Source: a virus. Taken from it: a stretch of DNA of 64,000 bases. The notes below the pieces were generated by a model. The model saw nothing but the letters and a program-made list of their open reading frames with translations. It did no database searches and was not told the DNA's origin. Location: positions 12,846 to 76,845 of IMG/VR virus record IMGVR_UViG_3300038760_000073; one strand, given 5' to 3'. The translations under genes and the position numbers were made by a program. Numbering within the stretch: position 1 is the first letter of the stretch; every line of letters starts with the position of its first letter. This document shows, in pieces, positions 42,553-64,000 of the stretch.

Positions 42553-43227
42553 TTAATACTTATCACACTCATTGTAGTCCCAAATAGCTGGAAATAGTCG
42601 CTCAAGCGCGTGAGCATATCCCCATTCTGATCTATCACCTATTTGCTCGAGCAAATTTTTCCACCATAATAAAGACTTATTATCTATACAGGCTGACTTA
42701 TTGACTATAAATTGTATACCGGCGGGGAAATGTCTAACTAATTCGTTTTTATCTGTAAGCACTTTAACAGGTAAGCTTATTTCAGATGCAACAACATCTA
42801 ACCCGTGCCCCCATTCAACAGATAGGCAGGTTGCCATATATCCTAACTCGACAAAATTCCCCGCGACTCTACAGAACTGATCGTCATTTAAATCTTTGAT
42901 AATATTATTATAATCTATTAGATTTTTGCACTTATAATTAACATACGGTACAGTATGCGGACAATGATCAAATGGGTGTCCCTGTAGAAATGTAATTGTT
43001 TCATAATCTTTATCATAATATTTGCATATATGATAAACATGTGTATGAGCATCCCTACCACTAAAATTATTTGGTAAATGTTCAATAATAGTGTTTGGTA
43101 TATCAGGTATATCGATACCTACTAAGTCCTCACTTTTATTATATATATAAATATCTACATCTTCTAACTGGTTAATCCAATTAATATCTTCATTATATCG
43201 CGCTATTACGACTGCATTTTTTTTCAT
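42553..43227 (-). CDS. DUF3431-like putative glycosyltransferase
   Basis: VIARYNEDINW, IYNK, GR.AHT..YHI...YD, FLQGHPFDH, LER. Confidence 0.7.
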   Translation of the reverse strand: MKKNAVVIARYNEDINWINQLEDVDIYIYNKSEDLVGIDIPDIPNTIIEHLPNNFSGRDAHTHVYHICKYYDKDYETITFLQGHPFDHCPHTVPYVNYKCKNLIDYNNIIKDLNDDQFCRVAGNFVELGYMATCLSVEWGHGLDVVASEISLPVKVLTDKNELVRHFPAGIQFIVNKSACIDNKSLLWWKNLLEQIGDRSEWGYAHALERLFPAIWDYNECDKY

Positions 43228-44492
43228 AATTGTATTTCTGCTTTTTCAACCCAGCCTCTACTTTTACTTATAGCCCAATATACAACTTTAACTGGTATTT
43301 TTTCTGTCATAAACATCTCTTCGTAGTGAATTGGTTTACCATCCCTAACAAGATCTTCCAGTCTCTTATCATTAATATATGTTTGATGTATACCTATACC
43401 ATCTTCATCATCAAATGACACTAACAGATTCTCATAATCATCACCCGGTAACATATCTTTGGTTATATCCACTAAATAGTATATAGAATTTATAAAGGAG
43501 TCTTCCCACTCCTCCTCACTATTATAAGGGTATGGGTTTGGAGGAATTTTATTATCTTTAGTATATTGCTGGAATGCTCGCCGCTTAAAATTTATACCAG
43601 CATACCTTTCATAATCCTTTAAAGATCGTGTTTTGCCTAAATCATACTCACCTAAATCTAACAACCTCTCTTCTACACCAAGCAGCTGTCTAATTCTAGC
43701 ACGAGCATCATTATTACCCCTCCACCACATATCGTCACCCCTACTGGACATGTCGTCCCATACTAACATATTACTTCTCTCTTCTCTCATTGTAGCATGC
43801 CAAATTACTACTCGATGCGGATGAAACAAATCATACCCATGGGTGAAAGATCTAACTGTGAGATTAATCTCTTCACCAGCGAAGAAAATATTTGGATCAT
43901 GTCTAATTTCTTTAGCCCACTTATTTGACCCAAACGAAAAGTGACCACTTAAAAATCTAGCAGGGTATGGCTTTGTAAGTTCCTTCCAATCTCGAACACC
44001 TGTCGGTCTAATGAAGATAGTACCAAATGGGTAAAAGCAAGCCGCCTCTGATACCCATGGCTCTTGCACTCGTCCAGCCGGGTCATTAAAGGGATCATAC
44101 ATAGGTAGATAACCACCTATCACCGGATTGTATCCATCTTCAACTAGTTCATCATACCAACCAATTAAGGTACTATCCCAATTTTCTGTAAACCGGTGAT
44201 GTGAGTCCAATTGTAATACAAAATCTTCATCTTCGAGTAACTCATCATTGATAACTGCGCGCGCGTATGCTAAGCCTTTAGCTTCAGTATAAAGCATTTC
44301 TTTAACTTTAAACCTAGAATCGTCTTTAAATTCTGATAAGTCATCAAAACCATCTTTAGGGTTATATTGCCTACATATACCAAATCTAACCCTATTAGGA
44401 AATTCAGCGTTCGTTAGCGCATCCTTAATAGTAGGTATAAGCTCTGGATCTCTATATGCGGGCAAATGTATTAGTATAGTTCGTTCTGACAT
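43224..44492 (-). CDS. GT60-like polypeptide alpha-GlcNAc transferase (paralogue 2)
   Basis: AYRDPEL, AKG..YAR, QLDSHHRF..WD, SGHF.F, FAGEE, T.GYD. Confidence 0.8.
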   Translation of the reverse strand: MSERTILIHLPAYRDPELIPTIKDALTNAEFPNRVRFGICRQYNPKDGFDDLSEFKDDSRFKVKEMLYTEAKGLAYARAVINDELLEDEDFVLQLDSHHRFTENWDSTLIGWYDELVEDGYNPVIGGYLPMYDPFNDPAGRVQEPWVSEAACFYPFGTIFIRPTGVRDWKELTKPYPARFLSGHFSFGSNKWAKEIRHDPNIFFAGEEINLTVRSFTHGYDLFHPHRVVIWHATMREERSNMLVWDDMSSRGDDMWWRGNNDARARIRQLLGVEERLLDLGEYDLGKTRSLKDYERYAGINFKRRAFQQYTKDNKIPPNPYPYNSEEEWEDSFINSIYYLVDITKDMLPGDDYENLLVSFDDEDGIGIHQTYINDKRLEDLVRDGKPIHYEEMFMTEKIPVKVVYWAISKSRGWVEKAEIQL

Positions 44493-44493
44493 A

Positions 44494-45846
44494 TTAATTG
44501 CATCTTGTAAATTCAATAATATTGTTTTCAGCTAGTTGAACCTTGTTATCCATCTCTACCTCTTCTAGTAATCTAGGACTAATTATACCCTCCAGCCTAT
44601 CCATCCAACCTTGAGATTTAGAATTTGGCCATACAATCCATTTATAGGGCGGTACATCTGTATTAAACTGCCTCCATAGTTTGCAATAGTTGTCAGAGTC
44701 TTTCTTCATACGATCAATTTCGTCTGGTAAAGCATCCTCTCGATATATCTCATTACCATCAACATCCTCAAATGCTACAGCCCAGCATGTATAATCATCG
44801 AGAGGCACTAGATCATACCCAATATCAATACAGTGTTTAAAGAAATTTAAGAACGAGCTATTATATTCCTGTTCAGTTGTGTAAGTTGGATTAGGTGGAT
44901 ATTTATTATCTAGAGTATATTGCTGTAATTGTCTCTTCTCAAATAATACTCCCGCATATTTTTCATAATCTTCTAGAGTACGCTCATTACCCAAGCCATA
45001 TTCACACTTATCCCCTTCAGCGATAAATTCACCATCTATACCCAATAACTTTCTAACTTTGGTATGTGATTGTGTATCTAACTCTACCCACCCGTCATTA
45101 TCACTCCAATGTCTAGGTTGATCTGATCTAGTATAGTAATGCCAGATTACAACTCGATGAGGGTGAAATAAATCATACCCATGGGTATACGCTCGAACTG
45201 CTAGACTTATTTCTTCACCGTGGAAGTATATCTCAGGGTCATGCTGAACTTCTTTAGAGAATATACCTAAAGTAAAGCAGAAATGTGCTGAGAGAAATCT
45301 AGCTGCAATAGGGGCATTATAGTTTACCCAGTTTGGAATTGTTTCTGGCTTAGTATGTAGAGGACCTTCCGGGGCAAATCTATCAAATACCAAACGCCAT
45401 GGATCATTTTCAGTTTTACCTGTTTTTGGATCATATGCCGGTACATATCCTGTTAACAGAGGTTTTTTATGACCTTGTAGCTGCAGCATATAGATCATAT
45501 TCTTTAGTGTAGTGTCCCAACCCTCTGTAAATCGGTGATGTGAATCTAAGTGAAGTGTAAAATCTTCATCATTATAATGTTGCTGAATTAAATTTCTAGC
45601 CCAACATACACCTTTAGCTTCCTTATAATCAATATCGATAATATTAATATTTTTGTGTTTGTTAAAACTAGTTAGTTTATCCCACTTGTCTTCTTTAGCA
45701 TGTTGCCAAGCAACACACACCCGTAAATTATCAGGCTCATCAGCTTTCTCAAGCATATCCTTTAATGTCTTTTTAAGTTCAGGGTCTCTATATGATGCAA
45801 TCTGCACAAAAATTAGTTTACCCGTGTAAGGATTCATATTAATCAT
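44494..45846 (-). CDS. GT60-like polypeptide alpha-GlcNAc transferase (paralogue 1)
   Basis: IFVQIASYRDPEL, AKGVCWAR, LDSHHRF, FHGEEI, R.YT.GYD, G.ERTLEDY. Confidence 0.82.
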   Translation of the reverse strand: MINMNPYTGKLIFVQIASYRDPELKKTLKDMLEKADEPDNLRVCVAWQHAKEDKWDKLTSFNKHKNINIIDIDYKEAKGVCWARNLIQQHYNDEDFTLHLDSHHRFTEGWDTTLKNMIYMLQLQGHKKPLLTGYVPAYDPKTGKTENDPWRLVFDRFAPEGPLHTKPETIPNWVNYNAPIAARFLSAHFCFTLGIFSKEVQHDPEIYFHGEEISLAVRAYTHGYDLFHPHRVVIWHYYTRSDQPRHWSDNDGWVELDTQSHTKVRKLLGIDGEFIAEGDKCEYGLGNERTLEDYEKYAGVLFEKRQLQQYTLDNKYPPNPTYTTEQEYNSSFLNFFKHCIDIGYDLVPLDDYTCWAVAFEDVDGNEIYREDALPDEIDRMKKDSDNYCKLWRQFNTDVPPYKWIVWPNSKSQGWMDRLEGIISPRLLEEVEMDNKVQLAENNIIEFTRCN

Positions 45847-45911
45847 TTAATCTGTTAAAAAATAAAATCCAGTAGTTGCATTATTAATAATTGACTATAA
45901 TATATAACTAT

Positions 45912-46256
45912 ATGTCAAATATTACAACAATCGTCGATCAAGTCGGAAGAACAGTTATTGGTGTGGAAACTAAATCCACAAAAGATACTATTACACTAAA
46001 TAATCCAGTTATTATTCATGTACAACCAAACTCAGAAAACGGTCAATTACAAGTACAATCGTTTCCTTACCTGTTTATGGAGTTTATTAAAGGTGATAAA
46101 ACAAAAAACAACTGGACATTCAATAAAGGTGCAATCGCTATCTCAGATGTTGAATTGGATGATAAGATTATTGAGCAATACAATAATATTAATTCACCAG
46201 CAGCTACTGCTGCATCTCCAGAAGAGCCTAGTGTAATTAAACTGTTTGACGAATAA
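45912..46256 (+). CDS. Conserved hypothetical protein (Sm-like T4-type)
   Basis: LNNPVIIHVQP...LQVQSFP...IIEQYN. Confidence 0.6.
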   Translation: MSNITTIVDQVGRTVIGVETKSTKDTITLNNPVIIHVQPNSENGQLQVQSFPYLFMEFIKGDKTKNNWTFNKGAIAISDVELDDKIIEQYNNINSPAATAASPEEPSVIKLFDE

Positions 46257-46271
46257 TTTAAGATAGCTCAT

Positions 46272-46343
46272 TCCGGTGTAGCATAATGGTAGTGCACGTG
46301 ACTGTTAATCACGCAAGTGTTGGTTCGAACCCAACCACCGGAG
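46272..46343 (+). tRNA. tRNA-Asn(GTT), CCA not encoded
   Basis: Acceptor TCCGGTG/CACCGGA; anticodon arm CGTGA-CTGTTAA-TCACG; T arm GTTGG-TTCGAAC-CCAAC. Confidence 0.95.
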
Positions 46344-46384
46344 TTTATTGCAATTTACCATACTACAAACTAAATATATTTACT

Positions 46385-46810
46385 ATGAAACTAACTACAA
46401 ATAAAAATAACATCCTATCAAATAACCCTATCGTTAATCTAGATAAAATATTTGATAATATGTTTAATACAACACCATTATTTCATAATTTAAATGAAAT
46501 ATATAAAACAGGTGATCAGGTCAGGTTCTCACCTGATGATGAATCGCTTACAGTTCAAATTGATCTACCAGGAGTAAAGCGAGATGATATTGCAATCACC
46601 TCCGATACAGACCAGTCCGAGGTATATATTAAAGCGAAGAGAGACATTAAAACTCTAGACGGTACACAGGAACAAACATATAACCGTTCCTTTACAGTAG
46701 GACGTGAGTATGATATTAAGCAAATTACATTTGTCTATCAAGATGGTTTACTTGAAATTGATGTTCCACGGCGGCAAAAGGAACAATATCTTAGAACACA
46801 TACACTATAA
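46385..46810 (+). CDS. Small heat-shock protein (Hsp20)
   Basis: IDLPGVKRDDI, YNRSF, YQDGLLEIDVP. Start moved to 46385 because the longer ORF overlaps the tRNA. Confidence 0.85.
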   Translation: MKLTTNKNNILSNNPIVNLDKIFDNMFNTTPLFHNLNEIYKTGDQVRFSPDDESLTVQIDLPGVKRDDIAITSDTDQSEVYIKAKRDIKTLDGTQEQTYNRSFTVGREYDIKQITFVYQDGLLEIDVPRRQKEQYLRTHTL

Positions 46811-46831
46811 CCTTTAACTTAAAATAATATT

Positions 46832-46870
46832 AAAGACCTCTATTGCATATTATGTGGTAGAGGTCTTTTT
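46832..46870 (+). terminator. Rho-independent terminator
   Basis: aaagacctcta...tagaggtcttttt hairpin plus T-tract. Confidence 0.8.
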
Positions 46871-46894
46871 GTTTGTATTATACTTAAAAATAAG

Positions 46895-46922
46895 TTGTAA
46901 AGTAAGGATCTTAATATATAAT
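46895..46922 (+). promoter_or_regulatory. Promoter TTGTAA-N16-TATAAT, 7 nt before uvsX
   Basis: Read directly from the sequence. Confidence 0.6.
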
Positions 46923-46929
46923 ATAGTAT

Positions 46930-48075
46930 ATGGATAAAGATATTGCAAGTGCGTTGGACGAAATTGATACTGTTAACCCCTTTGCAACATATCTAAGTGA
47001 TAGTACACTTAGTAGAGTAGGTGGGTGGGTTGATACTGGGTCATATGTATTAAATGCCATAATCTCCGGATCTCTTCATGGTGGTATACCTAAAGGTAGG
47101 GTAACTATGCTAGCTGGTGAGTCTATGACTGGTAAATCCCTGTTTGTTATGAAGATATTAGCTGCAGCTCAAAAAAGTGGGTTAATACCAGTTATTTTTG
47201 ATACGGAAAACGCGATTGACCCGGAAGGTGCTGAAAGACTTGGGTTAGATGTTAGCAAAGTTAAATATGTTCCTTGTATAAGTACAGAACAGACTAGAAA
47301 TGCATTATATAAGTTCCTTACATCAGTTAAAGAGAAGGGATTGGAGGGTAAATTTATCGTTGCTATTGATTCCTTAGGAAATTTACAGTCAGAACTGTCA
47401 TTATCACGAATGAGTAAAGATAATACAGCAGCTGATATGGGTACAAATGCTCGAGCTATGAAATCTCTCATGCAGACATGTACTAATTTAGGAGCTGTCA
47501 CACAAACAACTATTATATGCACTAACCATGTGTATGATAATCCTGCAGCTCTGTTCCCATCAATCGAGAAAAATATGCCTGGTGGTAAGTCATGTGTATA
47601 TCTACCTTCAGTTACCGTTCAACTGGCTAGAAAGCCAATGAAAGCTGACGGTGGCAAAACAATGGATGGTGAAACTGCTGTAGCGCAAAAGAGTTATGCT
47701 GGCATTATCATTAGAGCTCTAACTCGAAAGAATCGATTTATTAAACAGTATCTAGAGGGTGAAATGTATCTATCATTCGCATCCGGTTTAGATAGATACT
47801 ATGGCCTAATTGACTTAGCAGTTGGTTTAGGCGCCGTCATTCAAACTGGGGCAACCTACCAACTTGAAGATGGTAAGAAGTTAGGATATTACAAGCAGTT
47901 TAGGAAAAATACTGATCTATGGGAAAATACCATCCTACCTATTGTAGAGGCTAGAATGAAGGATGAGTGGAACTATTCAAACAAAGAAGAAGAACCACCT
48001 GATGAAGTAGCAGAAACGATAGTTGATCCAGTGTCGACCTCACTTAAGGATATATTAGAATTAAAGGAAAAATAA
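46930..48075 (+). CDS. uvsX: RecA-like recombinase
   Basis: DTGSYVLN..ISGS, AGESMTGKS, FDTE, IDSLGNL, NHVY, MPGG. Confidence 0.92.
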   Translation: MDKDIASALDEIDTVNPFATYLSDSTLSRVGGWVDTGSYVLNAIISGSLHGGIPKGRVTMLAGESMTGKSLFVMKILAAAQKSGLIPVIFDTENAIDPEGAERLGLDVSKVKYVPCISTEQTRNALYKFLTSVKEKGLEGKFIVAIDSLGNLQSELSLSRMSKDNTAADMGTNARAMKSLMQTCTNLGAVTQTTIICTNHVYDNPAALFPSIEKNMPGGKSCVYLPSVTVQLARKPMKADGGKTMDGETAVAQKSYAGIIIRALTRKNRFIKQYLEGEMYLSFASGLDRYYGLIDLAVGLGAVIQTGATYQLEDGKKLGYYKQFRKNTDLWENTILPIVEARMKDEWNYSNKEEEPPDEVAETIVDPVSTSLKDILELKEK

Positions 48076-48163
48076 TACTATATGCGACTCAGCTAAGAGG
48101 TTCTAACCCTATAGGTTATTGTGTTGCATCTTTGCTGTGAGATATTTGATAACATCTGCAGCC

Positions 48164-48469
48164 TCAAATCATGTTCTCGTCGCGGTAGCCATGTTCATCT
48201 TTGACGATTTGCATGAATGTCTCAAATTGATGTTTACCTAGGTTCATTAAAAAAACTAACCCAGCATCTCCAAGATTATCGACAAATACTTCAGCCTTTT
48301 TAACAAACTCGTCGAATTCACCTAGTGATTCATCTTCAGCTGGGTGTACATCACCTTCAGCCCCCATATGTGGAGGAGCCTCCTCTTGCTCGTAACTCTC
48401 GTTAAGAACTTTACCGGTCAAAACCTTAGTGTATTGCTCTGCCATTAAATCAAACTCATTACGCTTCAT
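48164..48469 (-). CDS. Late acidic hypothetical protein
   Basis: TAAATA-N5-ATG; MKRNEFDLMAEQY. Confidence 0.6.
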   Translation of the reverse strand: MKRNEFDLMAEQYTKVLTGKVLNESYEQEEAPPHMGAEGDVHPAEDESLGEFDEFVKKAEVFVDNLGDAGLVFLMNLGKHQFETFMQIVKDEHGYRDENMI

Positions 48470-48489
48470 AATATTATTTATGATACTAG

Positions 48490-48517
48490 TTGAATTTATA
48501 TCAAAAGACATTATAAT
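48490..48517 (+). promoter_or_regulatory. Promoter TTGAAT-N16-TATAAT, 6 nt before queC
   Basis: Read directly from the sequence. Confidence 0.7.
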
Positions 48518-48523
48518 TATTTC

Positions 48524-49267
48524 ATGAATAAACGACTCCTATTATCTTTATCAGGTGGTGCAGACAGTGTTGTCCTCTTGCATATGGCTGTTGATCGTGG
48601 ATATGAATATATTCATACTATATCGTTTGACTATGGGCAGAGACATAAGAGAGAGCTTGATTGTATACAGAAGCAGTTTAATGCTGTCAATGAAAAACAT
48701 AGCGTTAAACTGTTTAACACTATTATTGATGCGAACTTTCTTAAACAGATATGCCATACATCATCTCTCACCAATACTGATATCGAAAACCCCAATATCA
48801 GTAAGATTGCAGGAGATGCGCAGCCAGTATCATATGTACCATTCAGAAATCAGATGTTTAATACCATAGCTTGTGCATATGCAGAGAGTAATGGTATCTC
48901 AGATGTTTGGTATGGTGCTGCACAAGTTGATTCCTTAGCTGGTTATCATGATGGCTCGCGAGAGCATATTGATGCATTTAATCAGTTGATAGCTCTTAAT
49001 AGAGAACATAGGATAACGTTATCTGCACCACTATTAACAATGTCTAAAGCTGATATTATCTTAGAGGGTGTAAGACTAGGTGTCAACTTCGCAGACACAT
49101 GGACATGTTACAGTAACAGAGAAGATGGTTTAGCTGATGCTACAACACCATCAAGTAGCATGCGCTTAGCTGGTTTTATGCAAGCTGGTTATGTAGATCC
49201 TATCAAATATGTGCAGCAAAAGGCCCTAAATGATATATACGAACAAAAAGGGTGTAAAGAGATCTAA
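48524..49267 (+). CDS. queC: 7-cyano-7-deazaguanine (preQ0) synthase, atypical Zn site
   Basis: SGGADS PP-loop, FDYGQRH, YVPFRN, GY.D, APL..MSK, TWTCY, DPI.Y. Confidence 0.9.
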   Translation: MNKRLLLSLSGGADSVVLLHMAVDRGYEYIHTISFDYGQRHKRELDCIQKQFNAVNEKHSVKLFNTIIDANFLKQICHTSSLTNTDIENPNISKIAGDAQPVSYVPFRNQMFNTIACAYAESNGISDVWYGAAQVDSLAGYHDGSREHIDAFNQLIALNREHRITLSAPLLTMSKADIILEGVRLGVNFADTWTCYSNREDGLADATTPSSSMRLAGFMQAGYVDPIKYVQQKALNDIYEQKGCKEI

Positions 49268-49270
49268 TTA

Positions 49271-49741
49271 TTATAGTAACTCTGCCTTAATTAACCAAAC
49301 TATTACACTATATAATTGTCCGAAAGCTATTGATAACAGGCATATTTTTGTTATCCTTCTAGTTTTTCTGCTAGCTCCTAATGTTGGAGCTATAAATGCA
49401 CGTATATGACAATACGCTGCAATAGTTGTCATTAATTGCCTAAAAATTATGTTTGGAAAAACACCAAATTCTATCAGATTGGTAGTAAAGGGCATCTCGA
49501 GATAATGTGAAGTCCATGGTATAAGCCAGTATAGGTTATCCACCGCGTTACCTAAAAATCCTATGGTTATCCCACAAATTATCCAACCCATTTGCGGTGT
49601 AATTTTATCATCAGTTCTACGTATTGCATGCCGTAGCGAATGACTACACTCATATATAATATATGCGCTTAATATTACTAATGGAAAGGTCCATGCAATA
49701 GATTGCAGCTCTATTATTGTTTGTATTTGATCGTAATACAT
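49271..49741 (-). CDS. Late multi-pass membrane protein
   Basis: About 4 hydrophobic segments; TAAATA upstream. Confidence 0.6.
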   Translation of the reverse strand: MYYDQIQTIIELQSIAWTFPLVILSAYIIYECSHSLRHAIRRTDDKITPQMGWIICGITIGFLGNAVDNLYWLIPWTSHYLEMPFTTNLIEFGVFPNIIFRQLMTTIAAYCHIRAFIAPTLGASRKTRRITKICLLSIAFGQLYSVIVWLIKAELL

Positions 49742-49756
49742 AACAATAATATTTAG

Positions 49757-52395: not shown

Positions 52396-53067
52396 ATTTG
52401 CGCAATTTTTGGCTCATTTGAACCTTCAATGTTTGAAGTATTATACCAAGCAAATAAATTGCGTGGTAATTTTGCCAGTAGTGTTATTGCAATTGGTCAT
52501 GAAGATACATATATTCAAAAATTTGAAGGAGATATTCCTAAGTCGTTTGAATATGTAGATGATATGATATATATTACCGGTCATGTACAAGCACCAACAT
52601 CATGTAAACGTGAGTGGTCATATGATACATCACATCCGTTTGAGTCTATTTCATGGACAATATGTCATAATGGCGTTATAACAAATGAACAGCATCTTCG
52701 ACAGACATACCTACCATATATAGAAAATCCTGTTGATTCTTCGTTAATAGCTAACCTACTACAATTGTTTGTAGAAAATCAGTCAGCATCTAATGATAAT
52801 ATAGACCCAGTAAATGCTATTAAATCAACACTAACGTTGCTAGAAGGTACATTTGCATTATCTATTATTGATTCTGATACAGGGGAGTTTTATATTGCTC
52901 GTTGTGGGTCTATTCTACATTATGACGATAAAGGCAATTTTTCAACTATACCTGGTAAAGGGTTTACAGAGTTGCCAGAAGGTATAATCATGCGACTTGA
53001 TAAAGATCATCTTAAATGGGTGCAAGTTGCAACTTTTGAGACTCAATCACCATTTCTTTTTATATGA
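52396..53067 (+). CDS. Class II (Ntn) glutamine amidotransferase, probable ATT start
   Basis: In-frame ATT-TGC-GCA-ATT-TTT-GGC gives (M)CAIFG; RG, GH.QAPT, HPF, HNGVI.N, VDS, EGTFA. Confidence 0.82.
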   Translation: MCAIFGSFEPSMFEVLYQANKLRGNFASSVIAIGHEDTYIQKFEGDIPKSFEYVDDMIYITGHVQAPTSCKREWSYDTSHPFESISWTICHNGVITNEQHLRQTYLPYIENPVDSSLIANLLQLFVENQSASNDNIDPVNAIKSTLTLLEGTFALSIIDSDTGEFYIARCGSILHYDDKGNFSTIPGKGFTELPEGIIMRLDKDHLKWVQVATFETQSPFLFI

Positions 53068-53708
53068 GTAAGATATTTTATTTTTCAGCAACTGCAGGGT
53101 CAAAACGAGACACCCTACTATACAAAACGACAGATAAAGAAGTATTTTTTAAGGAAAATAATACCGACTCTTTACAGAAAACATATAACAAGGCAATCGA
53201 TTTCTGTATAGAAGAGAGTATTGAATACATTGTGATATCACATGATGATATTATATTTGAAAATGTTACAGAAAGTAAACTACTGGAAAATTTTGATAGG
53301 TACGATATGTTTGGAGTGGCGGGAGCTACTCAATGTAAATTTAATAAACCGGCTCTATGGCATTTAATGGGTGGTGGGGTTCAAGGCAGAGCGTTGAGAG
53401 GTGCGGTGGCACACATTAATGGTAAGAAGAAAAATATGACTGCATTTGGCCCTTACCCATCTCGAGTTGTGGTAGTAGACGGGGTATTCCTCGCAATTAG
53501 TAGGAAGGTTTTTGAAAAAATACGATTTGATGAGGATTGCCCTGCTAAGTTCCACATGTATGACTTGGACTATTCTCTCGCTGCTCATAATGCGGGATTT
53601 AAAGTGGGTGTGAGCGATATATTAATTACACATGAGTCACCTGGATTAACAAAAACGACTGATGAGTTTAAGAGGGGTGAAGATTGGTTTTTAACAAAGT
53701 ATAAGTAG
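53064..53708 (+). CDS. GT2-like glycosyltransferase
   Basis: YNKAI, HDD, GVAG, VDGVFLA, FDE...FH.YD.D, H.S.G. Confidence 0.78.
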   Translation: MSKIFYFSATAGSKRDTLLYKTTDKEVFFKENNTDSLQKTYNKAIDFCIEESIEYIVISHDDIIFENVTESKLLENFDRYDMFGVAGATQCKFNKPALWHLMGGGVQGRALRGAVAHINGKKKNMTAFGPYPSRVVVVDGVFLAISRKVFEKIRFDEDCPAKFHMYDLDYSLAAHNAGFKVGVSDILITHESPGLTKTTDEFKRGEDWFLTKYK

Positions 53709-56904: not shown

Positions 56905-56921
56905 TATATAATATAAAAAAT

Positions 56922-57794
56922 ATGAGTACATTTAATACATCAATGTTCGAGTCAATTAAAGACGCACTAGTAAGTGAAAATCAAAGCCAGTCAAAATATA
57001 ATGAGATAATCTCATGCAAGGTGGGTAATACATACTCTATCAGGTTGCTACCATTTGGTAAGTCTCCAAAAGATACATTTTTCCACTACTACAATCATGG
57101 TTGGGTATCCTTCGCTACTGGTCAATATGTTCAGGCTCTATCACCACAAACGTTTGGTGAGCGTGACCCTATCGCAGAAGAGCGGTTTCGATCACAACGT
57201 ATGGGGACAGAGGAAGAGAAAGAACGAGCACAGGCAATCCGCCGGCAAGAAAAGTGGCTTGTTAATGCATATGTTATTGATGATCCAACGAATCCGGATA
57301 ATAATGGAAAGGTTAAAATTCTTAGATATGGTAAGCAGCTACATAAAATTATCACCGCAGCAATTGAAGGTGAGGATGCTGAAGAGTTTGGCGCTCGTAT
57401 TTTCGATCTAGGATCAGACGGTGTAACTCTGAAGGTAAAATGCGAGAAGCAAGGTGACTACCCAACGTATGTATCTTCAAGGTTTACAACAGCTGGTAAA
57501 CTTGATCTCTCGGAAGAGCGTCAGAAAGAGATTTATGAAAATGTGTTTACATTGAAAGAGGTATTCCCGCTCCGATCGAGTGATGATCTAAAAGGTATGC
57601 TTGATGAGCATTATTTTTGTGAAACAGCCAGTTCGTCTAGTACATCAACTACACTCCCGGTAGAAAATACTCCACCCTTACAAGAGAGTAATCCGCCATG
57701 GGTCGATAACACAACATCTTCCACTCCAGTGGGTGCAGGGGTAAGTACCAGTTCGGTTGACGCTGATATTGATGAGCTACTAAAAGATCTATAA
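56922..57794 (+). CDS. gp32: Single-stranded DNA-binding protein
   Basis: IRLLP, YNHGW, DPI.E, YVIDDP.NP.NNGKVKI.RYGK, IFDL, Y..S.F, acidic tail. Confidence 0.9.
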   Translation: MSTFNTSMFESIKDALVSENQSQSKYNEIISCKVGNTYSIRLLPFGKSPKDTFFHYYNHGWVSFATGQYVQALSPQTFGERDPIAEERFRSQRMGTEEEKERAQAIRRQEKWLVNAYVIDDPTNPDNNGKVKILRYGKQLHKIITAAIEGEDAEEFGARIFDLGSDGVTLKVKCEKQGDYPTYVSSRFTTAGKLDLSEERQKEIYENVFTLKEVFPLRSSDDLKGMLDEHYFCETASSSSTSTTLPVENTPPLQESNPPWVDNTTSSTPVGAGVSTSSVDADIDELLKDL

Positions 57795-57795
57795 T

Positions 57796-58329
57796 ATGAA
57801 CCAAGAAGATAAAAATGCCGTTCTACAATTTATGGGTCAAGTGTATGGTGAATCCAAAAAAAATGATGGTATGTTGATTAATCAGTCAACAAATCTCAAA
57901 CCTAAATCTGATGAACTTAAACAAGTATTCGAAAAAACACTTCAAACTAATATACAGCAGCGCCCTCAACATATTTCGCCGGCTCCACATGTGGGGCCGG
58001 CGGTAATGGCGCCATCTGACGCGCCAGCATATGCTAGCACTCCCACTCTAGTAACACCAGAACAAGCCGCAGCTGCACTAGCAGAGACAGTAGTATCGGC
58101 TCCGCTTCATCCATTACCGGTGGTGCATGAACAGGACCACGACACCTCGAATCAAGAACAGCTAGAGTTTGATCTTACCGAGCCTAGTAAAATAGATAAG
58201 CTGCTGGATTTAATTAAGGATCAGACTAGAATCATATCAACAATTAATAAAAATATTGAATTAATTGCTAAGAGTATGAATACAACATCTAAACCCTCAA
58301 CAACTAAACATGCTAAAGGTAACAAATAG
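57796..58329 (+). CDS. Hypothetical protein with Pro/Ala linker
   Basis: In operon; contains QLEFDL, a possible clamp-binding-like motif. Confidence 0.6.
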   Translation: MNQEDKNAVLQFMGQVYGESKKNDGMLINQSTNLKPKSDELKQVFEKTLQTNIQQRPQHISPAPHVGPAVMAPSDAPAYASTPTLVTPEQAAAALAETVVSAPLHPLPVVHEQDHDTSNQEQLEFDLTEPSKIDKLLDLIKDQTRIISTINKNIELIAKSMNTTSKPSTTKHAKGNK

Positions 58330-59023
58330 GCTGCAATTTTTACAGTACTTAGATTCTGTCGCAAAAATTAATGATAGTGCTATTTTTGAAATTAATCCTG
58401 AGGGTATTAGCTGTTTAGTAGCATCTATTGATAATACGTTAATCTTATATACAGAGTATAAAGAGCCACAAGATATAACTACAACTATTAATGTACCTGA
58501 TATTAAAAAACTACATAGAGTTATTGATACAATTGATGGCAATAGCTTTAATTTAGTTATTAGTAATAATAACCTACAATATAAAGGTGTAAATGTTAAG
58601 TTTAAATACCATTTATTTGAAGATGGGTTTTTAGCTAAACCAGGTCTCAACTTACAAAAGATTAAGGATTTTAGCTATGATATTAAATTCAATGTAACTA
58701 AGTCACTATTACAACAGTTGTTTAAAGGCAGTACTTTTGCATCTGAAACTAATAAAGTCTATTTTTACACTGAAGATGGTAAGTTAAAGGCAGAGTTAAC
58801 TGATCGATCTAGACATAATACTGATGTGTTTGCTATAACTATTATAGATGGTGTAGATTTTAAGCTAGAACCACTACCAATTAACTTCGATAATATCAGA
58901 CTACTAACATCTGTTACAAATGAATACCAATTTAACATTAATACTGAGTATGGTGTTGTTGTTGTTGAAAATTGTAGCGATACCACTAAACTAAAATATA
59001 TTATCTCATCTTTAACACAATGA
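58310..59023 (+). CDS. gp45: Sliding clamp (gp45/PCNA-like)
   Basis: 237 aa; two-domain clamp-like pattern (IND.AIF, INVPDIKKL, KFKY, KYII); replication context. Confidence 0.65.
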   Translation: MLKVTNRLQFLQYLDSVAKINDSAIFEINPEGISCLVASIDNTLILYTEYKEPQDITTTINVPDIKKLHRVIDTIDGNSFNLVISNNNLQYKGVNVKFKYHLFEDGFLAKPGLNLQKIKDFSYDIKFNVTKSLLQQLFKGSTFASETNKVYFYTEDGKLKAELTDRSRHNTDVFAITIIDGVDFKLEPLPINFDNIRLLTSVTNEYQFNINTEYGVVVVENCSDTTKLKYIISSLTQ

Positions 59024-59346
59024 TTAATAGACATGGAAAAAATAAGCTCAAGACTGCAGGATATTTTATTAAAAGGCTTCGAGATAGTGGGTTCGAGACA
59101 ATCCGAATTTTTAATGGTTATAATGATAGCGATCCACGTAAGTGGACTATATTAATTGACCCAAAAAATACAGCTGTTTTTGTAACATGCTTCGAAAATA
59201 CACCTTTTAAGGGTGAATACTTATTTACCTTTGAAGATGGTAATCAGAGATTTCGTTCAGGTTATAGTCTTAAAACAGATTCAATTGAAGTTGTAGTTAA
59301 TAAATTGCTTACTTGTGGTGTAGATCAACTAAAACAACCTAAATAG
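59020..59346 (+). CDS. Hypothetical protein
   Basis: ATGA-coupled. Confidence 0.65.
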   Translation: MINRHGKNKLKTAGYFIKRLRDSGFETIRIFNGYNDSDPRKWTILIDPKNTAVFVTCFENTPFKGEYLFTFEDGNQRFRSGYSLKTDSIEVVVNKLLTCGVDQLKQPK

Positions 59347-59351
59347 TATTA

Positions 59352-59690
59352 ATGAATGATATTGATGACCATGGTAATGATTATGCCGCTGGGGATAATG
59401 ACGAACTAAAAAATCTCATTGAAGCGGCTCTATCTGACGCGATTAGTAGCAGTTCGAAAAAAGAATATGCGGATTATAATAAGTTAGTAGGTGTGGTTAA
59501 ATCAATTGTAGCTGAATATCTGGACAGCTTTATAGTTATAGGTTATGATTTTGATGGTAAGGTAGTTGAACTTCAATCAGCTAGCAATTCACAGCAAAAG
59601 GATGCATTACGTACACTATGTTTGAAGTATCTTTGCTTTAAAACTGGTTATGCTATACCAGGTGTTTATGAGAACGAAGGCGATCTGTAA
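59352..59690 (+). CDS. Hypothetical protein
   Basis: TAAATA-N6-ATG. Confidence 0.6.
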   Translation: MNDIDDHGNDYAAGDNDELKNLIEAALSDAISSSSKKEYADYNKLVGVVKSIVAEYLDSFIVIGYDFDGKVVELQSASNSQQKDALRTLCLKYLCFKTGYAIPGVYENEGDL

Positions 59691-59940
59691 AATTCGTGAA
59701 GCATATGCGATTGAGACCGGGGATTACGCCGGTCAGGTATTTGTTGTTATAGACATAGGTGAAACCGTAGGCTGTTTAAGCTTACCTAGCATGGATAATG
59801 TTCATATACCTAAAAAATCGTTTATTTCCGGAAGGAACACCGGTATAATAACATTAATAGAGAGAATACCTAGGTCAACCTTTAAAGTCTCTAAAGCACA
59901 ATATATTAAAAATGAAAACCTTAATCATAGACGGAAATAA
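59650..59940 (+). CDS. Hypothetical protein
   Basis: ORF in operon; the true start may be the second Met. Confidence 0.5.
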   Translation: MLYQVFMRTKAICKIREAYAIETGDYAGQVFVVIDIGETVGCLSLPSMDNVHIPKKSFISGRNTGIITLIERIPRSTFKVSKAQYIKNENLNHRRK

Positions 59941-60769
59941 TTTGGTTCATAGATGCTGGTGGACGGCAAAGAAGGTTGCTGGTGAAGATACCGGTCAATT
60001 AGATAATTTTCATATACACTTTACATTAAACGCAATTTTTTCTTATGTTAACAGATATAAGCCGACACAGACAATTATTGTGTGGGATGAAAAGCAGGGT
60101 AAAACACAAAACACTCGTAAAGTTTCATTTCCTGACTATAAAGGGAATCGGTCAGCTGACCCAGCACCTCATAAAAATAATAAGACTGTCACAAGGTTGT
60201 TAAACAGTGTAAGTATACCATCAATATACCCCTACGAGCGTGAAGCAGATGATATTGTTGCGTATATATGTAAAACGTACACAGGCTCTAAGGTTGTTGT
60301 TTCTGTTGATAGGGACTTTTTACAATTGGTTAATAATGATACAATATTGTTTGACCCTATTAGGAAACGGGAGTTTATTATTAACACATTTAAAGCAGAT
60401 ACCGGTTGGTGCAAAGAAGAGTGGTTAAAAGCTAAATGCTGTGAAGGTGATAAGTCAGATAATGTACCTGGTATCCATAGATTTGGTAAAGTTAAAATTA
60501 GAAAATGGTTGGATGGTGATTTACAACTAACAGAAGAGCAGCAGCAAATTATTGATAGAAATTTAACCTTGTTTAGCCTTGATGCTGTTATGCAGTGCGA
60601 AAGTGAATGTACCTATTATCAAGAGCAGTTAGATATACCTGTTGTATCTACGTGGGATAAATTTATTGCAGAGTGTGAGGAACGAGATCTAAAAAATATA
60701 TTGAAAAAGCGGGATGAGTGGTATAATTTGTTTGTTATGGGAAACAAATTAACTCAGTTATTGGGATGA
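59912..60769 (+). CDS. rnh: 5'-3' exonuclease/T4 RNase H-like flap endonuclease
   Basis: IIDGNNL, YKGNR, EADD, S.DRDFLQL, GDKSDNVPGI. Confidence 0.9.
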   Translation: MKTLIIDGNNLVHRCWWTAKKVAGEDTGQLDNFHIHFTLNAIFSYVNRYKPTQTIIVWDEKQGKTQNTRKVSFPDYKGNRSADPAPHKNNKTVTRLLNSVSIPSIYPYEREADDIVAYICKTYTGSKVVVSVDRDFLQLVNNDTILFDPIRKREFIINTFKADTGWCKEEWLKAKCCEGDKSDNVPGIHRFGKVKIRKWLDGDLQLTEEQQQIIDRNLTLFSLDAVMQCESECTYYQEQLDIPVVSTWDKFIAECEERDLKNILKKRDEWYNLFVMGNKLTQLLG

Positions 60770-61824
60770 TGCTACCAGAGGAGTTTGTAATTGTAAAGTT
60801 TTATGAACTTGGTTATAGACCGTTTTATAATAAATTTACAAACGTATATCAATGTGCGTGTCCTATTTGCAAAGAGGGTAAATCATTTAAGACAAAGCGC
60901 CGGTGTTACTATGTGCCTAAGAACGATAACATTTATTGTCACAACTGCGGCTATAGCTCTAAACCCTTAAAGTGGATAACAGAAGCATCCGGGGATACAG
61001 ATGCAGATGTTATACGAGAACTTAGAGACTACATACCCTCGGCAGACGTGTTAGCTGAGGGTGTAACAACGGCTCCCACAGTTGTTACAGATACCCTACC
61101 TGAAGATAGTATTAACCTATCTGATAGCACGCAGGTGGAATATTACAAATCAAACGATGTTATACGCGCAACTAAACATCTTATAAAGCTTAGGCGTTTA
61201 GATACAGCTGTTAATAGGCCGACTAACTTATATGTATCATTAACAGATAAGGTTCATAAAAATCGGTTAGTGCTACCGTTTTTAAATGAAACAAATAATA
61301 TTGAATTTTACCAGACTAGAACAGTCTTACCACGTGATAACAAAGTGAAGCCTAAGTATCTAGGTAGGGTGGGTGCTGAGAAAACCTTATTTAATATTAA
61401 TAAAATTGATCAGACTAGTGATAGGGTTTATATTTTTGAGGGTCCTATTAATGCGTTTTTTACTAAAAACTCTGTAGCTGTTGCAGGTATTACAGAGCGC
61501 GGCAGATCATTTACAACTAGACAGCAACAACAACTAGATACAACTCTTAAATTATTTAAGAGAGTATGGATTTTAGACTCTCAATGGATAGATCAAGCGT
61601 CTCTTATTAAAACAGAAGCGCTACTACAGCAAGGTGAGAGTGTATTTGTTTGGCCGGAGAGGTTTGGTAAAAAGTTCAAGGACTATAACGATATTGCAAT
61701 GTTTTATGGTATAGATGAAATTAAGGAGCATTTCATCCAAAAACACACCTATAGTGGTCTAGAGGGAATTGTTAAGCTGTCTGTAATTAAACGATATAGT
61801 TCAGATCAATCAACTAGTCGTTAA
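60766..61824 (+). CDS. gp61: DNA primase
   Basis: CPIC...CHNCG Zn finger, RLVLPF, YQTR, KY, FEGP, KDYND. Confidence 0.88.
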   Translation: MMLPEEFVIVKFYELGYRPFYNKFTNVYQCACPICKEGKSFKTKRRCYYVPKNDNIYCHNCGYSSKPLKWITEASGDTDADVIRELRDYIPSADVLAEGVTTAPTVVTDTLPEDSINLSDSTQVEYYKSNDVIRATKHLIKLRRLDTAVNRPTNLYVSLTDKVHKNRLVLPFLNETNNIEFYQTRTVLPRDNKVKPKYLGRVGAEKTLFNINKIDQTSDRVYIFEGPINAFFTKNSVAVAGITERGRSFTTRQQQQLDTTLKLFKRVWILDSQWIDQASLIKTEALLQQGESVFVWPERFGKKFKDYNDIAMFYGIDEIKEHFIQKHTYSGLEGIVKLSVIKRYSSDQSTSR

Positions 61825-61838
61825 GTCTACTTTTTGGG

Positions 61839-62276
61839 TTATACGTGGCGGAACGCTGGATTGTCAGTCTGTGATATATAACCTCTAAAAGATTCAGTTA
61901 ACCCAGCTAGTTCTGTTGCGACACGTGTAATTTTACGTTGTTCAGATGCCTTCATGCGATCGAAAATTGTGTCTGGCTCAGATGCCGCAAGTGTAGCTTG
62001 AATAGAGTTCTGCTCTCCATTAAGTCTCTGTAAAAAACTATCCATTTCAGATACCCAACCTTCAAGCTGGGTTCTCATCTCGGCAGCATGCTGGGCATGC
62101 GCTCTAGATGCTTCTACGGCTGCATTATCACCACCAGTTTCAGGCATATCTGTATCTATATTAAAATCCTCCGAGTTTGTCTCATCATCCAAGGTATCTA
62201 CAAATGCATCCTTTTCTAGATCATCTAAACTAGCTTCATCTAGAAGTTTGAAGAACCTTTTTTCGAACTTATTCAT
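61839..62276 (-). CDS. Late acidic hypothetical protein
   Basis: TAAATA-N5-ATG; MNKFEKRFFKLLDEA. Confidence 0.65.
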   Translation of the reverse strand: MNKFEKRFFKLLDEASLDDLEKDAFVDTLDDETNSEDFNIDTDMPETGGDNAAVEASRAHAQHAAEMRTQLEGWVSEMDSFLQRLNGEQNSIQATLAASEPDTIFDRMKASEQRKITRVATELAGLTESFRGYISQTDNPAFRHV

Positions 62277-62310
62277 ACAATTATTTATGCCAAGCATAAA
62301 TATTTTAAGG
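62277..62310. promoter_or_regulatory. Back-to-back late promoters forming an inverted repeat
   Basis: tatttatgc-caa-gcataaata. Confidence 0.7.
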
Positions 62311-62637
62311 ATGAATATCAATAATTCTCCATATAGTACAGGTATTGCAAATAAACCTGTTAGCAGCCAATTAGATATAGACAGCCAAATCGCAAAATAT
62401 AAAGAAGATGAATTAACTCAGAAAGCGCCTCCTATTTTACCTCATGAGTTGGATAATATTATTGCTGCTCTGGGAGACACATTTATTTCACTAACTCAAT
62501 TAAGTCAGATGTTAGCGGCTGCAGCACAAAATGATGAGATTGATAAGCTAGGCATTAATAAGATTATTGATAAAGTTGATAATGCTAACCAAATTGTGCT
62601 TGCAATCTCAGAAGATTTGGATATACTAAAGGTATGA
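62311..62637 (+). CDS. Late hypothetical protein
   Basis: TAAATA-N8-ATG. Confidence 0.6.
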   Translation: MNINNSPYSTGIANKPVSSQLDIDSQIAKYKEDELTQKAPPILPHELDNIIAALGDTFISLTQLSQMLAAAAQNDEIDKLGINKIIDKVDNANQIVLAISEDLDILKV

Positions 62638-63071
62638 TAAACATACTAGTGTCTTTATTTATAACATCAATAATCTCTACCCTTTTTGGTTTTGGTTTCA
62701 GTAGTATTGTTGGTTTTTGGCAAGCCTTTGCTATTGCTGCCGGTCTCCAAATAATTATTGCTCTTATATATAAATCATTTCGAATTGAGCAACAGAGTAG
62801 TAGTTCTAATGATGTAGAGCAACAGTTTAATGACCTATTATCATTAAGCACTATTAGTTTTACATGTCCGTGTAGTAAATATACATTTACTGAGGAGGTA
62901 TTTGCTGGTACAGTAAATATATTTAAATGTCCTGAGTGTAATAGTAATGTTAAAGTTAATCTAAACGCTTCAACTGTACTACAAACTAATGTTTTAAACA
63001 CCGATATTACAAATGATGTTCAGGCAGTGTTGGAGTCAAATGTAGATAGTGAGTCTGTGAAGGAAATCTAA
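62634..63071 (+). CDS. Membrane protein (2 TM) with Zn-ribbon
   Basis: Two hydrophobic helices; CPC...CPEC. Confidence 0.65.
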   Translation: MINILVSLFITSIISTLFGFGFSSIVGFWQAFAIAAGLQIIIALIYKSFRIEQQSSSSNDVEQQFNDLLSLSTISFTCPCSKYTFTEEVFAGTVNIFKCPECNSNVKVNLNASTVLQTNVLNTDITNDVQAVLESNVDSESVKEI

Positions 63072-63087
63072 TATAATTATATTAGAT

Positions 63088-63330
63088 ATGAAAACATTTA
63101 CATTTGAACTAAAGGATGGTAAAACTAAAGTAATGGAATTTGATGAATTTGTGAGGTGGGCCTGTTTGATTGAAGGTATTCAAAAAGTTGATGAAAAATT
63201 ACAACAGGTGAACGTTCCTGACTCAGATAATAGCTGGGTTAAACCACTAGCATTCGAAAAATATATTAGGGAGAGATTTCCCGCAATGAAGCATGATCTA
63301 ACTGTGGAAGCAACCTTAGGTACCATATAA
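63088..63330 (+). CDS. Hypothetical protein
   Basis: WVKPLAFEKYI.ER. Confidence 0.6.
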   Translation: MKTFTFELKDGKTKVMEFDEFVRWACLIEGIQKVDEKLQQVNVPDSDNSWVKPLAFEKYIRERFPAMKHDLTVEATLGTI

Positions 63331-63377
63331 TATATTATGTAATATACAATGCTAGCTGCTCGATAGTCAATATTTAC

Positions 63378-63417
63378 CAAAAAAAGGTATACCGGTTAAC
63401 CGGTATACCTTTTTTTG
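63378..63417. terminator. Bidirectional terminator; perfect 40-bp palindrome
   Basis: caaaaaaaggtataccggtt|aaccggtatacctttttttg, between convergent genes. Confidence 0.85.
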
Positions 63418-63418
63418 T

Positions 63419-64000
63419 TTAACTACTAGAAGGTGTTGGTGTTATTGAAGGTGTTGGTGTTATTGAAGGAGTAGGTGTTATTGATGGTGTAGCAGTAACT
63501 GACGGGGTAGGTGTTATTGAAGGTGTTGGTGTTATTGAAGGTGTTGGTGTTATTGAAGGAGTAGGTGTTATTGAAGGAGTAGGTGTTATTGAAGGTGTTG
63601 GTGTTATTGATGGTGTAGCAGTAACTGACGGGGTAGGTGTTATTGAAGGTGTTGGTGTTATTGAAGGTGTTGGTGTTATTGAAGGTGTAGGTGTTATTGA
63701 CGGGGTAGCAGTAACAGATGGTGTTGGTGTTATTGACGGAGTAGCAGTAACAGATGGTGTTGGTGTTATTGACGGAGTAGCAGTAACTGAAGGTGTAGGT
63801 GTTATTGAAGGTGTTGGTGTTATTGATGGTGTTGGTGTTATTGATGGTGTAGGTGTTATTGATGGTGTTGGTGTTATTGACGGAGTAACTGTAACTGATG
63901 GTGTTATAGATGGTGTGGGTGTTATAGATGGTGTTGGTGTTATTGACGGAGTAACTGTAACTGATGGTGTTATAGATGGTGTGGGTGTTATAGATGGTGT
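63419..64000 (-). CDS. C-terminal mucin-like Pro/Thr/Ser tail of a protein starting beyond the window
   Basis: 193 open codons, [20 protein letters not shown]...ITPTPSSS*; variation is mostly at synonymous third positions. Confidence 0.85.
63428..64000 (-). repeat. Degenerate 18-bp tandem repeat encoding [12 protein letters not shown] (about 30 units)
   Basis: gaaggtgttggtgttatt and variants. Confidence 0.95.

Follow-up and report, generated by a model that had tools for sequence, protein, structure and literature searches.

A conserved GT60 glycosyltransferase cassette of a marine T4-like phage and its possible role in mucin-type O-glycosylation of Pro/Thr/Ser-repeat stalks

The stretch of DNA analysed here (the window; 64,000 bp, GC content ~33%) is the final 64 kb of a linear 76,845-bp IMG/VR virus record of seawater origin (IMGVR_UViG_3300038760_000073) with a CheckV completeness of 36%. 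It carries two tandem glycosyltransferase genes of family GT60, a gene for a two-domain HtrL/GT2 glycosyltransferase and the end of a gene encoding a Pro/Thr/Ser (PTS) repeat tail, which are considered here as parts of a candidate phage-encoded system for mucin-type O-glycosylation (Table 1). T4-type core genes were found in the window by Pfam, namely portal gp20, gp15, UvsW, gp47/46 and PolB gp43 as well as UvsX, gp41, gp32 and RNase H. The 12.8 kb upstream of the window encode the gp23 major capsid protein, the gp21 prohead protease and tail-fibre-like proteins (Pfam, PHROG). PolB is at most ~32% identical to that of cultured phages. Near-identical DNA was found in seawater metagenomes from one study and a strain with ~98% identity in metagenomes of a second, later study; no RNA sample was listed among the carriers, which says nothing about expression. 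The phage is therefore an uncultured and divergent marine T4-like myovirus.

Table 1. Features of the window with their positions (first letter of the window = 1), strand and the evidence on which each assignment is based
Feature	Position	Strand	Evidence
Second sugar island	5535..14344	-	Pfam
FkbM-like methyltransferase domain	8322-9716		Pfam
Fused ThDP enzyme and Zn-dehydrogenase	9716-11934		
GT10-like glycosyltransferase	11931-12746		Pfam
GT2/GT7C glycosyltransferase	12740-14344		Pfam
558-aa protein	14620-16296		
Radical-SAM-like candidate QueE	17191-17982		weak Fer4_12 match
QueD/PTPS	19443-20093		
GTP cyclohydrolase I	20304-20960		
406-aa protein	23795-25015		DUF6267 E 8.5e-96
HtrL/GT2 two-domain glycosyltransferase, 567 aa; candidate extender	37351..39054	-	Pfam HtrL_YibB (N-terminal) E 3e-11, weak GT2 (C-terminal)
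GT2-like	39063-39935	-	Pfam
341-aa protein without assigned family	40012-41037	-	TAAATA-N6-ATG late-type motif 5' of 41037
Methyltransf_24-like	41142-41846	-	Pfam
Methyltransf_24/TylF-like	41974-42552	-	Pfam
Weakly DUF3431-like, 224 aa	42553-43227	-	Pfam
GT60-like copy A, 430 aa; diverged paralogue	43224..44516	-	PF11397 E 4.9e-49
GT60-like copy B, 450 aa; candidate initiating enzyme	44494..45846	-	PF11397 E 1.2e-73
QueC	48524-49267		
Stand-alone GATase	52429-53067		
Glyco_tranf_2_5 protein, 214 aa, beside GATase-like gene	53064..53708	+	Pfam E 2.9e-12
Bidirectional intrinsic terminator between convergent replication-module genes and PTS gene	63383..63418	.	fold
C-terminal 193 residues of a protein extending beyond the contig end; candidate acceptor	63419..64000	-	translation

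Both tandem genes scored far above the cut-off of 21 bits of PF11397 ('GlcNAc'), with 168.1 bits for copy A and 249.1 bits for copy B, and the two proteins share 40% identity. A separate search of the whole contig matched the family again. This upheld the GT60 pair that had been proposed by an earlier reading of the sequence alone (the sequence-only reading). The motifs D101-S102-H103 and HGEE are invariant across 18 GT60 homologues and copy A keeps the DSH, which is the D-x-H metal motif of the polypeptide GalNAc-transferase (ppGalNAc-T) superfamily. The AlphaFold2 (AF2) model of copy B (pLDDT 88) shows a GT-A domain to which a C-terminal domain rich in beta structure is appended. Its top ~48 fold matches in the PDB were all ppGalNAc-transferases (Foldseek E down to 4e-12), while a PDB sequence search with GT60 yielded no homologue. 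No membrane segment was found in copy B. Given the hidden Markov model scores, the invariant DSH motif and the predicted fold, the assignment of both genes to GT60 can be considered solid. According to a paper on a brown-alga genome, PF11397 corresponds to GT60 of the CAZy classification (PMC6418280). All characterised GT60 enzymes are polypeptide alpha-GlcNAc-transferases (PMC9472816, PMC6939170), among them TcOGNT1, which transfers alpha-GlcNAc to Thr of mucins (PMC9472816), and Gnt1, which modifies a hydroxyproline of Skp1 (PMC6939170).

The 567-aa HtrL/GT2 protein also matched TIGR02192. Its AF2 model (pLDDT 84) showed two GT-A-like domains and the best folds were dual GT-A enzymes, namely Mimivirus R699, LARGE1, LH3, K4CP and COLGALT1. 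A link from HtrL_YibB to GT74 was not found by PDB sequence search, NCBIfam, Atlas or literature; the fold is GT-A-like. All window proteins were compared by tblastn with 82 IMG/VR and 80 GTDB loci that had been retrieved with a GT60 alignment. Homologues of HtrL/GT2 were detected in 78 of the viral and 38 of the bacterial loci, mostly immediately downstream of GT60 on the same strand and in full length in more than 70 loci. GT60 and HtrL/GT2 thus form a conserved cassette. The enzyme inventory of the sequence-only reading was right on the GT60 pair and had overlooked this partner.

In T4-like relatives (PolB ~70%, UvsX ~82% identity), the order GT60-GT60-HtrL/GT2 occupies the identical slot between uvsX and polB. 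The five genes inserted between the HtrL/GT2 gene and the GT60 pair of the window are absent at that slot in the relatives L108, L110-L116 and L161. In 27 further viral loci, the cassette includes genes for sugar O-methyltransferases (RMNT/Methyltransf_24). The largest phage clade has LamG/ConA-like Pro/Thr (PT) proteins first, then GT60, an O-methyltransferase for sugars and/or GT25, HtrL/GT2, a 144-aa family in which a PT tail is frequent, and PolB. With 67% identity, copy A is closest to the second GT60 of L025 and L026 (L025 on a 307-kb contig), whereas it shares only 34-38% identity with either GT60 of the phage's own T4-like relatives. Since the PolB proteins of L025 and L026 are only 27-28% identical to that of the window, an exchange of the cassette or part of it between phage lineages is suggested.

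The homologue family is large and comprises over 7,000 clusters (E <= 1e-10). At least 593 stretches in IMG/VR carry GT60 relatives and 260 stretches were found in GTDB species genomes, with carriers in Saprospiraceae, Gemmatimonadota, Acidobacteriota, Verrucomicrobiota and Alpha- and Gammaproteobacteria. Among 50,697 cultured phage records, the gene occurs in only four, namely XacN1, Xoo-sp13, CM1 and RAS14 (38-43% identity). PF11397 was not found in the records of five relatives that were reached via a 352-aa gene neighbouring the PTS gene, but these records are too fragmentary (10-34% complete) for this to be informative.

The sequence-only reading had further described a tail of at least 193 residues built from just six amino acids (T, P, S, I, V and A), which translation reproduced: 193 residues (63 Thr, 56 Pro, 35 Ser, 25 Ile, 9 Val and 5 Ala; 80% T+P+S) that run off the contig end. 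The tail is mainly composed of ITPTPS and VTATPS hexamers, ends with SSS-stop and is encoded by a DNA repeat with a period of 18 and 29 copies, inside which the contig terminates. The hairpin of the terminator after the stop codon has an 18-bp stem and A7/T7 flanks (-27.1 kcal/mol, z -7.4); it was missed by a simple terminator scan and revealed by folding. Two alternative frames are open across the repeat, a second one on the minus strand (N/T/Y-rich) and one on the plus strand (GVGVIE/D units). The TPS frame is preferred as the putative coding frame, because differences between the units fall mostly on its third positions (898/383/1354 by codon position), because its Ser is invariant while the plus-strand frame alternates E and D, because the latter has no start codon and would start right after the terminator, and because the positional counterpart in the closest relative L005 carries a tail of this kind in frame with a 1365-aa protein. 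The full PTS gene was not recovered from four seawater runs, in which every long contig ends at 63412 or 63338. In these runs, the repeat was covered solely by 40-60-nt pieces, with a word depth that exceeded that of the adjoining unique DNA 15-100-fold. This depth and the contig breaks at 63338-63412 therefore indicate that the repeat units recur many times in the PTS gene and probably also in other genes or phages of the samples.

L005, in which the neighbouring 352-aa gene is 81% identical, carries a gene for a 1365-aa protein at the same convergent position (L005:9209-13306, minus strand). The protein is composed of PS[VI]TP stalks, two Ig-like modules, a globular part of ~550 aa and a PT tail of ~170 residues. 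Its gene closes a minus-strand operon whose upstream members match tail-fibre and tail-collar PHROGs. The syntenic genes of the more distant relatives L014, L016 and L017 encode beta-helix proteins of 0.8-1.5 kaa (thousand amino acids) with PT or poly-T linkers, and a 3313-aa gene of XacN1 that adjoins baseplate-wedge genes and lies ~9 kb from GT60 carries PT linkers. The PT proteins themselves had no match in Pfam and PHROGs. Because of the tail-fibre operon of L005, the syntenic beta-helix proteins and the baseplate-adjacent gene of XacN1, it is reasonable to infer that the tail protein is located in the virion.

Co-occurrence of GT60 with PTS-repeat genes had been put forward as a check of the sequence-only reading and was borne out in viruses as well as in bacteria. 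An open reading frame (ORF) was considered PT-rich when 40 consecutive residues contained at least 70% P/T/S and at least six Pro; non-overlapping ORFs were counted and control viral loci were picked by an unrelated P-loop DNA pattern. PT-rich ORFs amounted to 82 of 1452 in GT60 viral loci and to none of 951 in the controls. At least one was present in 49 of the 82 GT60 viral loci compared to 0 of 79 control loci (Fisher ~1e-19). The PT-rich share was higher within two genes of GT60 than farther away, both in viral loci (12% vs 4%; p 2e-6) and in bacterial loci (7.4% vs 0.7%; p 6e-8). Conversely, PF11397 was present in 6 of 43 viral records chosen by a (TP)5-coding DNA pattern and in 0 of 46 control records (p=0.01), and in four of the five (TP)5 records with a length of at least 100 kb. 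In bacteria, PT-repeat proteins are encoded immediately upstream of GT60, for example in L051, L054, L067, L075, L081 and L093. The association is argued not to be mere co-inheritance, since it recurs in bacteria of several phyla.

On these grounds, it is held to be probable, with some reserve, that the phage encodes a soluble, cytoplasmic mucin-type O-glycosylation of Pro/Thr/Ser-repeat stalks on its fibres. Established here are the family, fold and catalytic motif of the GT60 enzymes, the conservation of the GT60 + HtrL/GT2 cassette, its genomic association with PT-repeat proteins and the lack of membrane components; donor, acceptor residue, order of steps, location in the virion and benefit are proposed below as we infer them. 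One or both GT60 enzymes would put the first N-acetylhexosamine on Thr/Ser of the fibre stalks in the host cytoplasm before assembly. By family precedent, this first sugar would be alpha-GlcNAc from UDP-GlcNAc. Hydroxyproline would be a less likely acceptor residue. As no prolyl hydroxylase (PF13640) was matched in the 76,845-bp record, which is 36% complete, while control genomes were matched, the hydroxyproline route is unsupported. The HtrL/GT2 enzyme may then add the next one or two sugars, like the bifunctional PgtA after Gnt1 on Skp1. Further elaboration and capping of the chain would fall to the second sugar island and to the GT2-like enzymes and TylF/Methyltransf_24 methyltransferases encoded by the inserted genes. 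The (ITPTPS)n tail, as part of a tail-fibre-module protein, would be the likeliest acceptor in this phage. The glycans might confer protease resistance, stiff and hydrated stalks, shielding or adhesion; the suggestion of shielding, adhesion or host mimicry is speculation.

Candidates for the extending and capping enzymes, which the sequence-only reading had listed beside initiator and acceptor, are present and free of membrane segments. The five inserted genes are candidates for extension and O-methyl capping. The second sugar island encodes an NAD epimerase/dehydratase, a PfkB-like kinase, the FkbM-like methyltransferase protein and a fused thiamine diphosphate (ThDP)-dependent E1/transketolase-like enzyme, furthermore a Zn-dehydrogenase, the GT10-like enzyme and the GT2/GT7C protein. 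The late-type motif TATAAATA lies immediately 5' of the epimerase gene at 6560. The island probably supplies and transfers unusual sugars, and only by inference can it be linked to the GT60 cassette. The ThDP enzyme (398 aa) combines E1_dh and transketolase pyrimidine-binding domains and is coupled to the Zn-dehydrogenase; together they could make a branched or two-carbon-extended sugar. The Glyco_tranf_2_5 protein is kept in T4-like relatives with 57-58% identity in L110, L111 and L113.

The numbers of domains had been set too high by the sequence-only reading. It had counted about a dozen glycosyltransferase domains and four methyltransferase domains and had placed them in 43224-64000. With Pfam at E < 0.01, eight glycosyltransferase domains were found in seven proteins (GT10-like, GT2/GT7C, HtrL plus GT2, GT2, the two GT60 copies and GT2_5) and three methyltransferase domains were detectable (the FkbM-like and two Methyltransf_24), most of them outside that region. 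Two of the three methyltransferase matches and two GT2 matches are below the Pfam cut-off.

None of 17 sugar-island proteins contained a hydrophobic segment. Among the Pfam matches of ~80 scanned ORFs of this incomplete fragment, there were no families of flippases, polymerases or initiating phosphoglycosyltransferases/lipid-carrier transferases. Because of the lack of hydrophobic segments and membrane machinery, the chemistry of the sugar islands is predicted to be cytoplasmic and non-lipid, which is part of the reading favoured here. The same results bear on a different role, in which the glycosyltransferase islands remodel glycans of the host envelope (core of lipopolysaccharide/lipooligosaccharide (LPS/LOS), capsule) during infection, for instance to exclude superinfecting phages or to change recognition by grazers or phages, and the PT tail is an unrelated flexible linker. 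The families HtrL_YibB, GT25, GT10 and GT2 are typical of LPS/LOS loci, the island contains nucleotide-sugar tailoring enzymes, and clusters with 13 glycosyltransferases in the cyanophages S-SCSM2R, S-SCSM1 and P-SSM2 have been read in this way (PMC12801897). However, such remodelling is difficult to reconcile with island proteins that lack any membrane component, flippase, polymerase, lipid-carrier transferase or hydrophobic segment, and with a GT60 family whose characterised members and nearest folds all act on polypeptides. It would also offer no explanation of why PT-repeat genes are overrepresented next to the cassette in both phages and bacteria and is thus regarded as rather unlikely.

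Glycosylation of PT-repeat proteins outside the virion was considered as well. The cassette would then act on adhesins or enzymes that are secreted or released by lysis, or on host proteins, and no virion coat would be formed. In its favour, Tat-like signal peptides and FN3/Ig-type modules occur in several of the PT proteins that neighbour GT60 in bacteria, PHROGs gave no structural annotation for the LamG/ConA-like PT proteins of the main phage clade, and the PTS protein of the window is represented by its tail alone. This is opposed by the L005 counterpart, which comes after tail-fibre genes on the same strand, by the beta-helix, tailspike-like syntenic proteins of L014, L016 and L017 and by the XacN1 PT-linker protein next to the baseplate wedge genes. 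Moreover, Ig-like and lectin-like modules in phage proteins of this size (1-1.5 kaa) usually denote fibres or decorations. A role outside the virion is therefore deemed improbable.

In the loci L075, L081 and L049, the PT proteins directly 5' of GT60 start with twin-arginine-like (Tat-like) signal peptides. Such proteins may be glycosylated in the cytoplasm and exported in folded form.

Several points weigh against fibre glycosylation by the phage. For the virion coat proposed by the sequence-only reading, GT60, the co-occurrence and the tail-fibre operon counterpart in L005 held up, but 17.5 kb separate the cassette from the PTS tail gene. The cassette lies in the replication module between polB and uvsX, and a late-type promoter motif is missing before the GT60 pair. 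Owing to the truncation of the PTS gene, its N-terminal domains and its role in the virion are taken from the L005 protein. The activity of phage and prokaryotic GT60 members is a prediction from family, fold and neighbourhood. Elsewhere, genes of the HtrL family have been described in LPS/LOS core loci, and PT tracts are common flexible linkers for which glycosylation is not required. The enrichment counts ignore kinship, as many of the 82 loci come from one phage clade, and the control loci were sampled differently (GC 0.40 vs 0.33). The Tat-like signals on some bacterial PT neighbours imply that the cellular logic there may differ from that of the phage.

The position of the cassette could also point to glycosylation of the phage DNA, with a hypermodified base that protects against restriction as in T-even and other phages. 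It adjoins polB in the window, in T4-like relatives and in the main environmental clade and is near polB in XacN1; the missing late promoter motif of the GT60 pair fits such a role. Diverse phage transferases are well known for it, and the 7-deazaguanine pathway shows that the phage already invests in DNA modification. Against this, neither a thymidylate-synthase-type hydroxymethylase nor TGT/DpdA was found in 77 kb, which is a weak argument with a contig that is 36% complete. Further counter-arguments are the occurrence of the same cassette on megabase bacterial chromosome contigs right after secreted-looking PT proteins, and fold and family, which indicate peptide acceptors. The number of transferases and O-methyltransferases is also above that of known DNA glycan systems. 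DNA as the acceptor is thus judged very improbable.

The predicted pathway was compared to known systems. Protist GT60 enzymes (TcOGNT1/2, Gnt1) and the phage enzymes have PF11397, the GT-A fold and the D-x-H metal motif in common. TcOGNT1 forms GlcNAc-alpha-1-O-Thr on Thr/Pro-rich mucins (PMC9472816), and Gnt1 is soluble and cytoplasmic as is predicted for the phage enzymes. In contrast to the protist enzymes, the phage and bacterial proteins form a subfamily of their own with ~415-450 aa, 55-59% mutual identity and a conserved beta-rich C-terminal domain of ~110 aa. Their acceptor in the phage would be a viral fibre and not Skp1 or a mucin anchored by glycosylphosphatidylinositol. As in the Skp1 pathway, GT60 is coupled to one chain with two glycosyltransferase domains, one of them GT2-like. 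In PgtA of Toxoplasma (GT74 + GT2), the non-GT2 domain comes first as in the phage HtrL/GT2 protein (PMC6939170). All components of both systems are cytoplasmic, on the phage side by prediction. The phage differs in that no hydroxylase was found in 77 kb and in that the target would consist of long tandem repeats instead of one residue of one protein. The animal ppGalNAc-Ts of family GT27, which occupied ranks 1 to ~48 among the structural matches of the GT60 model, share a DSH-type motif and the succession of a catalytic and a C-terminal accessory domain. The phage GT60 proteins are only 12-16% identical to them and have no ricin-type lectin domain, membrane anchor or secretory pathway.

Among phages, mycobacteriophage transferases glycosylate the C-termini of capsid and tail-tube proteins according to Freeman 2023 as cited in PMC12619734. 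These systems (Che8-type) are similar to the one predicted here, in which enzymes of the phage would likewise modify its structural proteins in the cytoplasm. They differ in having no GT60 initiator, in short C-terminal acceptors instead of long PT repeats, in their actinobacterial hosts and in having been shown experimentally. The F1-cluster phage WIVsmall has an HtrL_YibB gene near glycosyltransferase genes. The cyanomyoviruses S-SCSM2R, S-SCSM1 and P-SSM2 are likewise marine and T4-like and carry many glycosyltransferase (GT10, GT2, GT25) and nucleotide-sugar epimerase genes, clusters which have been read as host cell-wall or DNA modification (PMC12801897). They differ from the phage of the window, as no GT60 match was found in any cultured cyanophage and their PolB is ~32% identical. 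The Xanthomonas/Stenotrophomonas jumbo phages XacN1, Xoo-sp13, CM1 and RAS14 share GT60, with the copy of XacN1 near polB. XacN1 differs by a carbamoyltransferase after GT60 and by short PT tracts. The jumbo-phage gene is annotated just as 'glycosyltransferase' and no functional study of it was found in the literature. Likewise, no paper was found on GT60 in phages or on an association of a GT60 + HtrL/GT2 cassette with PT-repeat proteins of phages and bacteria.

To our knowledge, apart from giant viruses, only a few actinobacteriophages are documented to glycosylate their own particle, and the initiation of mucin-type chains is considered an invention of eukaryotes. It is conceivable, though doubtful at present, that GT60 + HtrL/GT2 represents a widespread and undescribed cytoplasmic mucin-type O-glycosylation of phages and bacteria (at least five phyla) that attaches a short and defined glycan to Thr/Ser residues within Pro/Thr stalks and is the prokaryotic and viral counterpart, possibly even the evolutionary source, of Gnt1/PgtA (Skp1) and the GT60/GT27 enzymes. 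Should the phage system function as predicted, relatives of the eukaryotic initiators would serve many abundant phages of aquatic habitats, and bacteria of several phyla, to make mucin-like glycoprotein stalks in the cytoplasm. This would bear on phage adsorption and stability, on immune and grazer recognition and on phage engineering, and it would allow the origin of GT60/GT27 and of the Skp1 pathway to be approached in a testable way. For the islands of this marine T4-like lineage, with their many glycosyltransferases, a reading other than host-surface modification would then be available. The four cultured jumbo phages with the gene make the idea directly testable. The contribution of the window is a T4-like lineage in which the cassette is fixed in the replication module and locally expanded with methyltransferases, together with a second sugar island and an unusually pure, free C-terminal (ITPTPS)n tail.

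Apart from the glycosylation genes, the contig showed some further features. The motif (T)ATAAATA lies 4-6 nt 5' of the ATG in many structural genes of the contig, which have no visible Shine-Dalgarno sequence; therefore, late transcripts with very short or absent leaders are suggested. It is also found 5' of PhoH and of the epimerase, 341-aa and 582-aa coiled-coil-like genes (at 6560, 41037 and 51935, respectively). In the form TAAATA-N5-6-ATG, it occurs at structural genes and at a small number of sugar genes, the GT60 pair excepted. Contig-wide, TATAAATA was observed 19 times with 21 expected and is thus not over-represented.

Genes for 7-deazaguanine (preQ0) synthesis are dispersed over the window, namely GTP cyclohydrolase I, QueD/PTPS, QueC, the stand-alone GATase and the radical-SAM-like candidate QueE. 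They suggest a modified guanine in the phage DNA; TGT/DpdA was searched for and not found in the 77-kb record with its completeness of 36%. The 558-aa protein following the second sugar island has no Pfam match, and its N-terminus and repeats resemble a beta-helix tailspike. Its gene has a local GC content of 0.42 (vs 0.33) and TATAAATA immediately 5' of the start codon. The 406-aa protein with the very strong DUF6267 match is encoded in a late-looking operon of small proteins. At contig positions 10040-10474 (L004:10040-10474), a gene for a TnsA-like endonuclease (E 8.6e-18) is inserted among head genes, with the prohead protease region on one side and a 384-aa late gene on the other, and is probably a mobile homing-type element.

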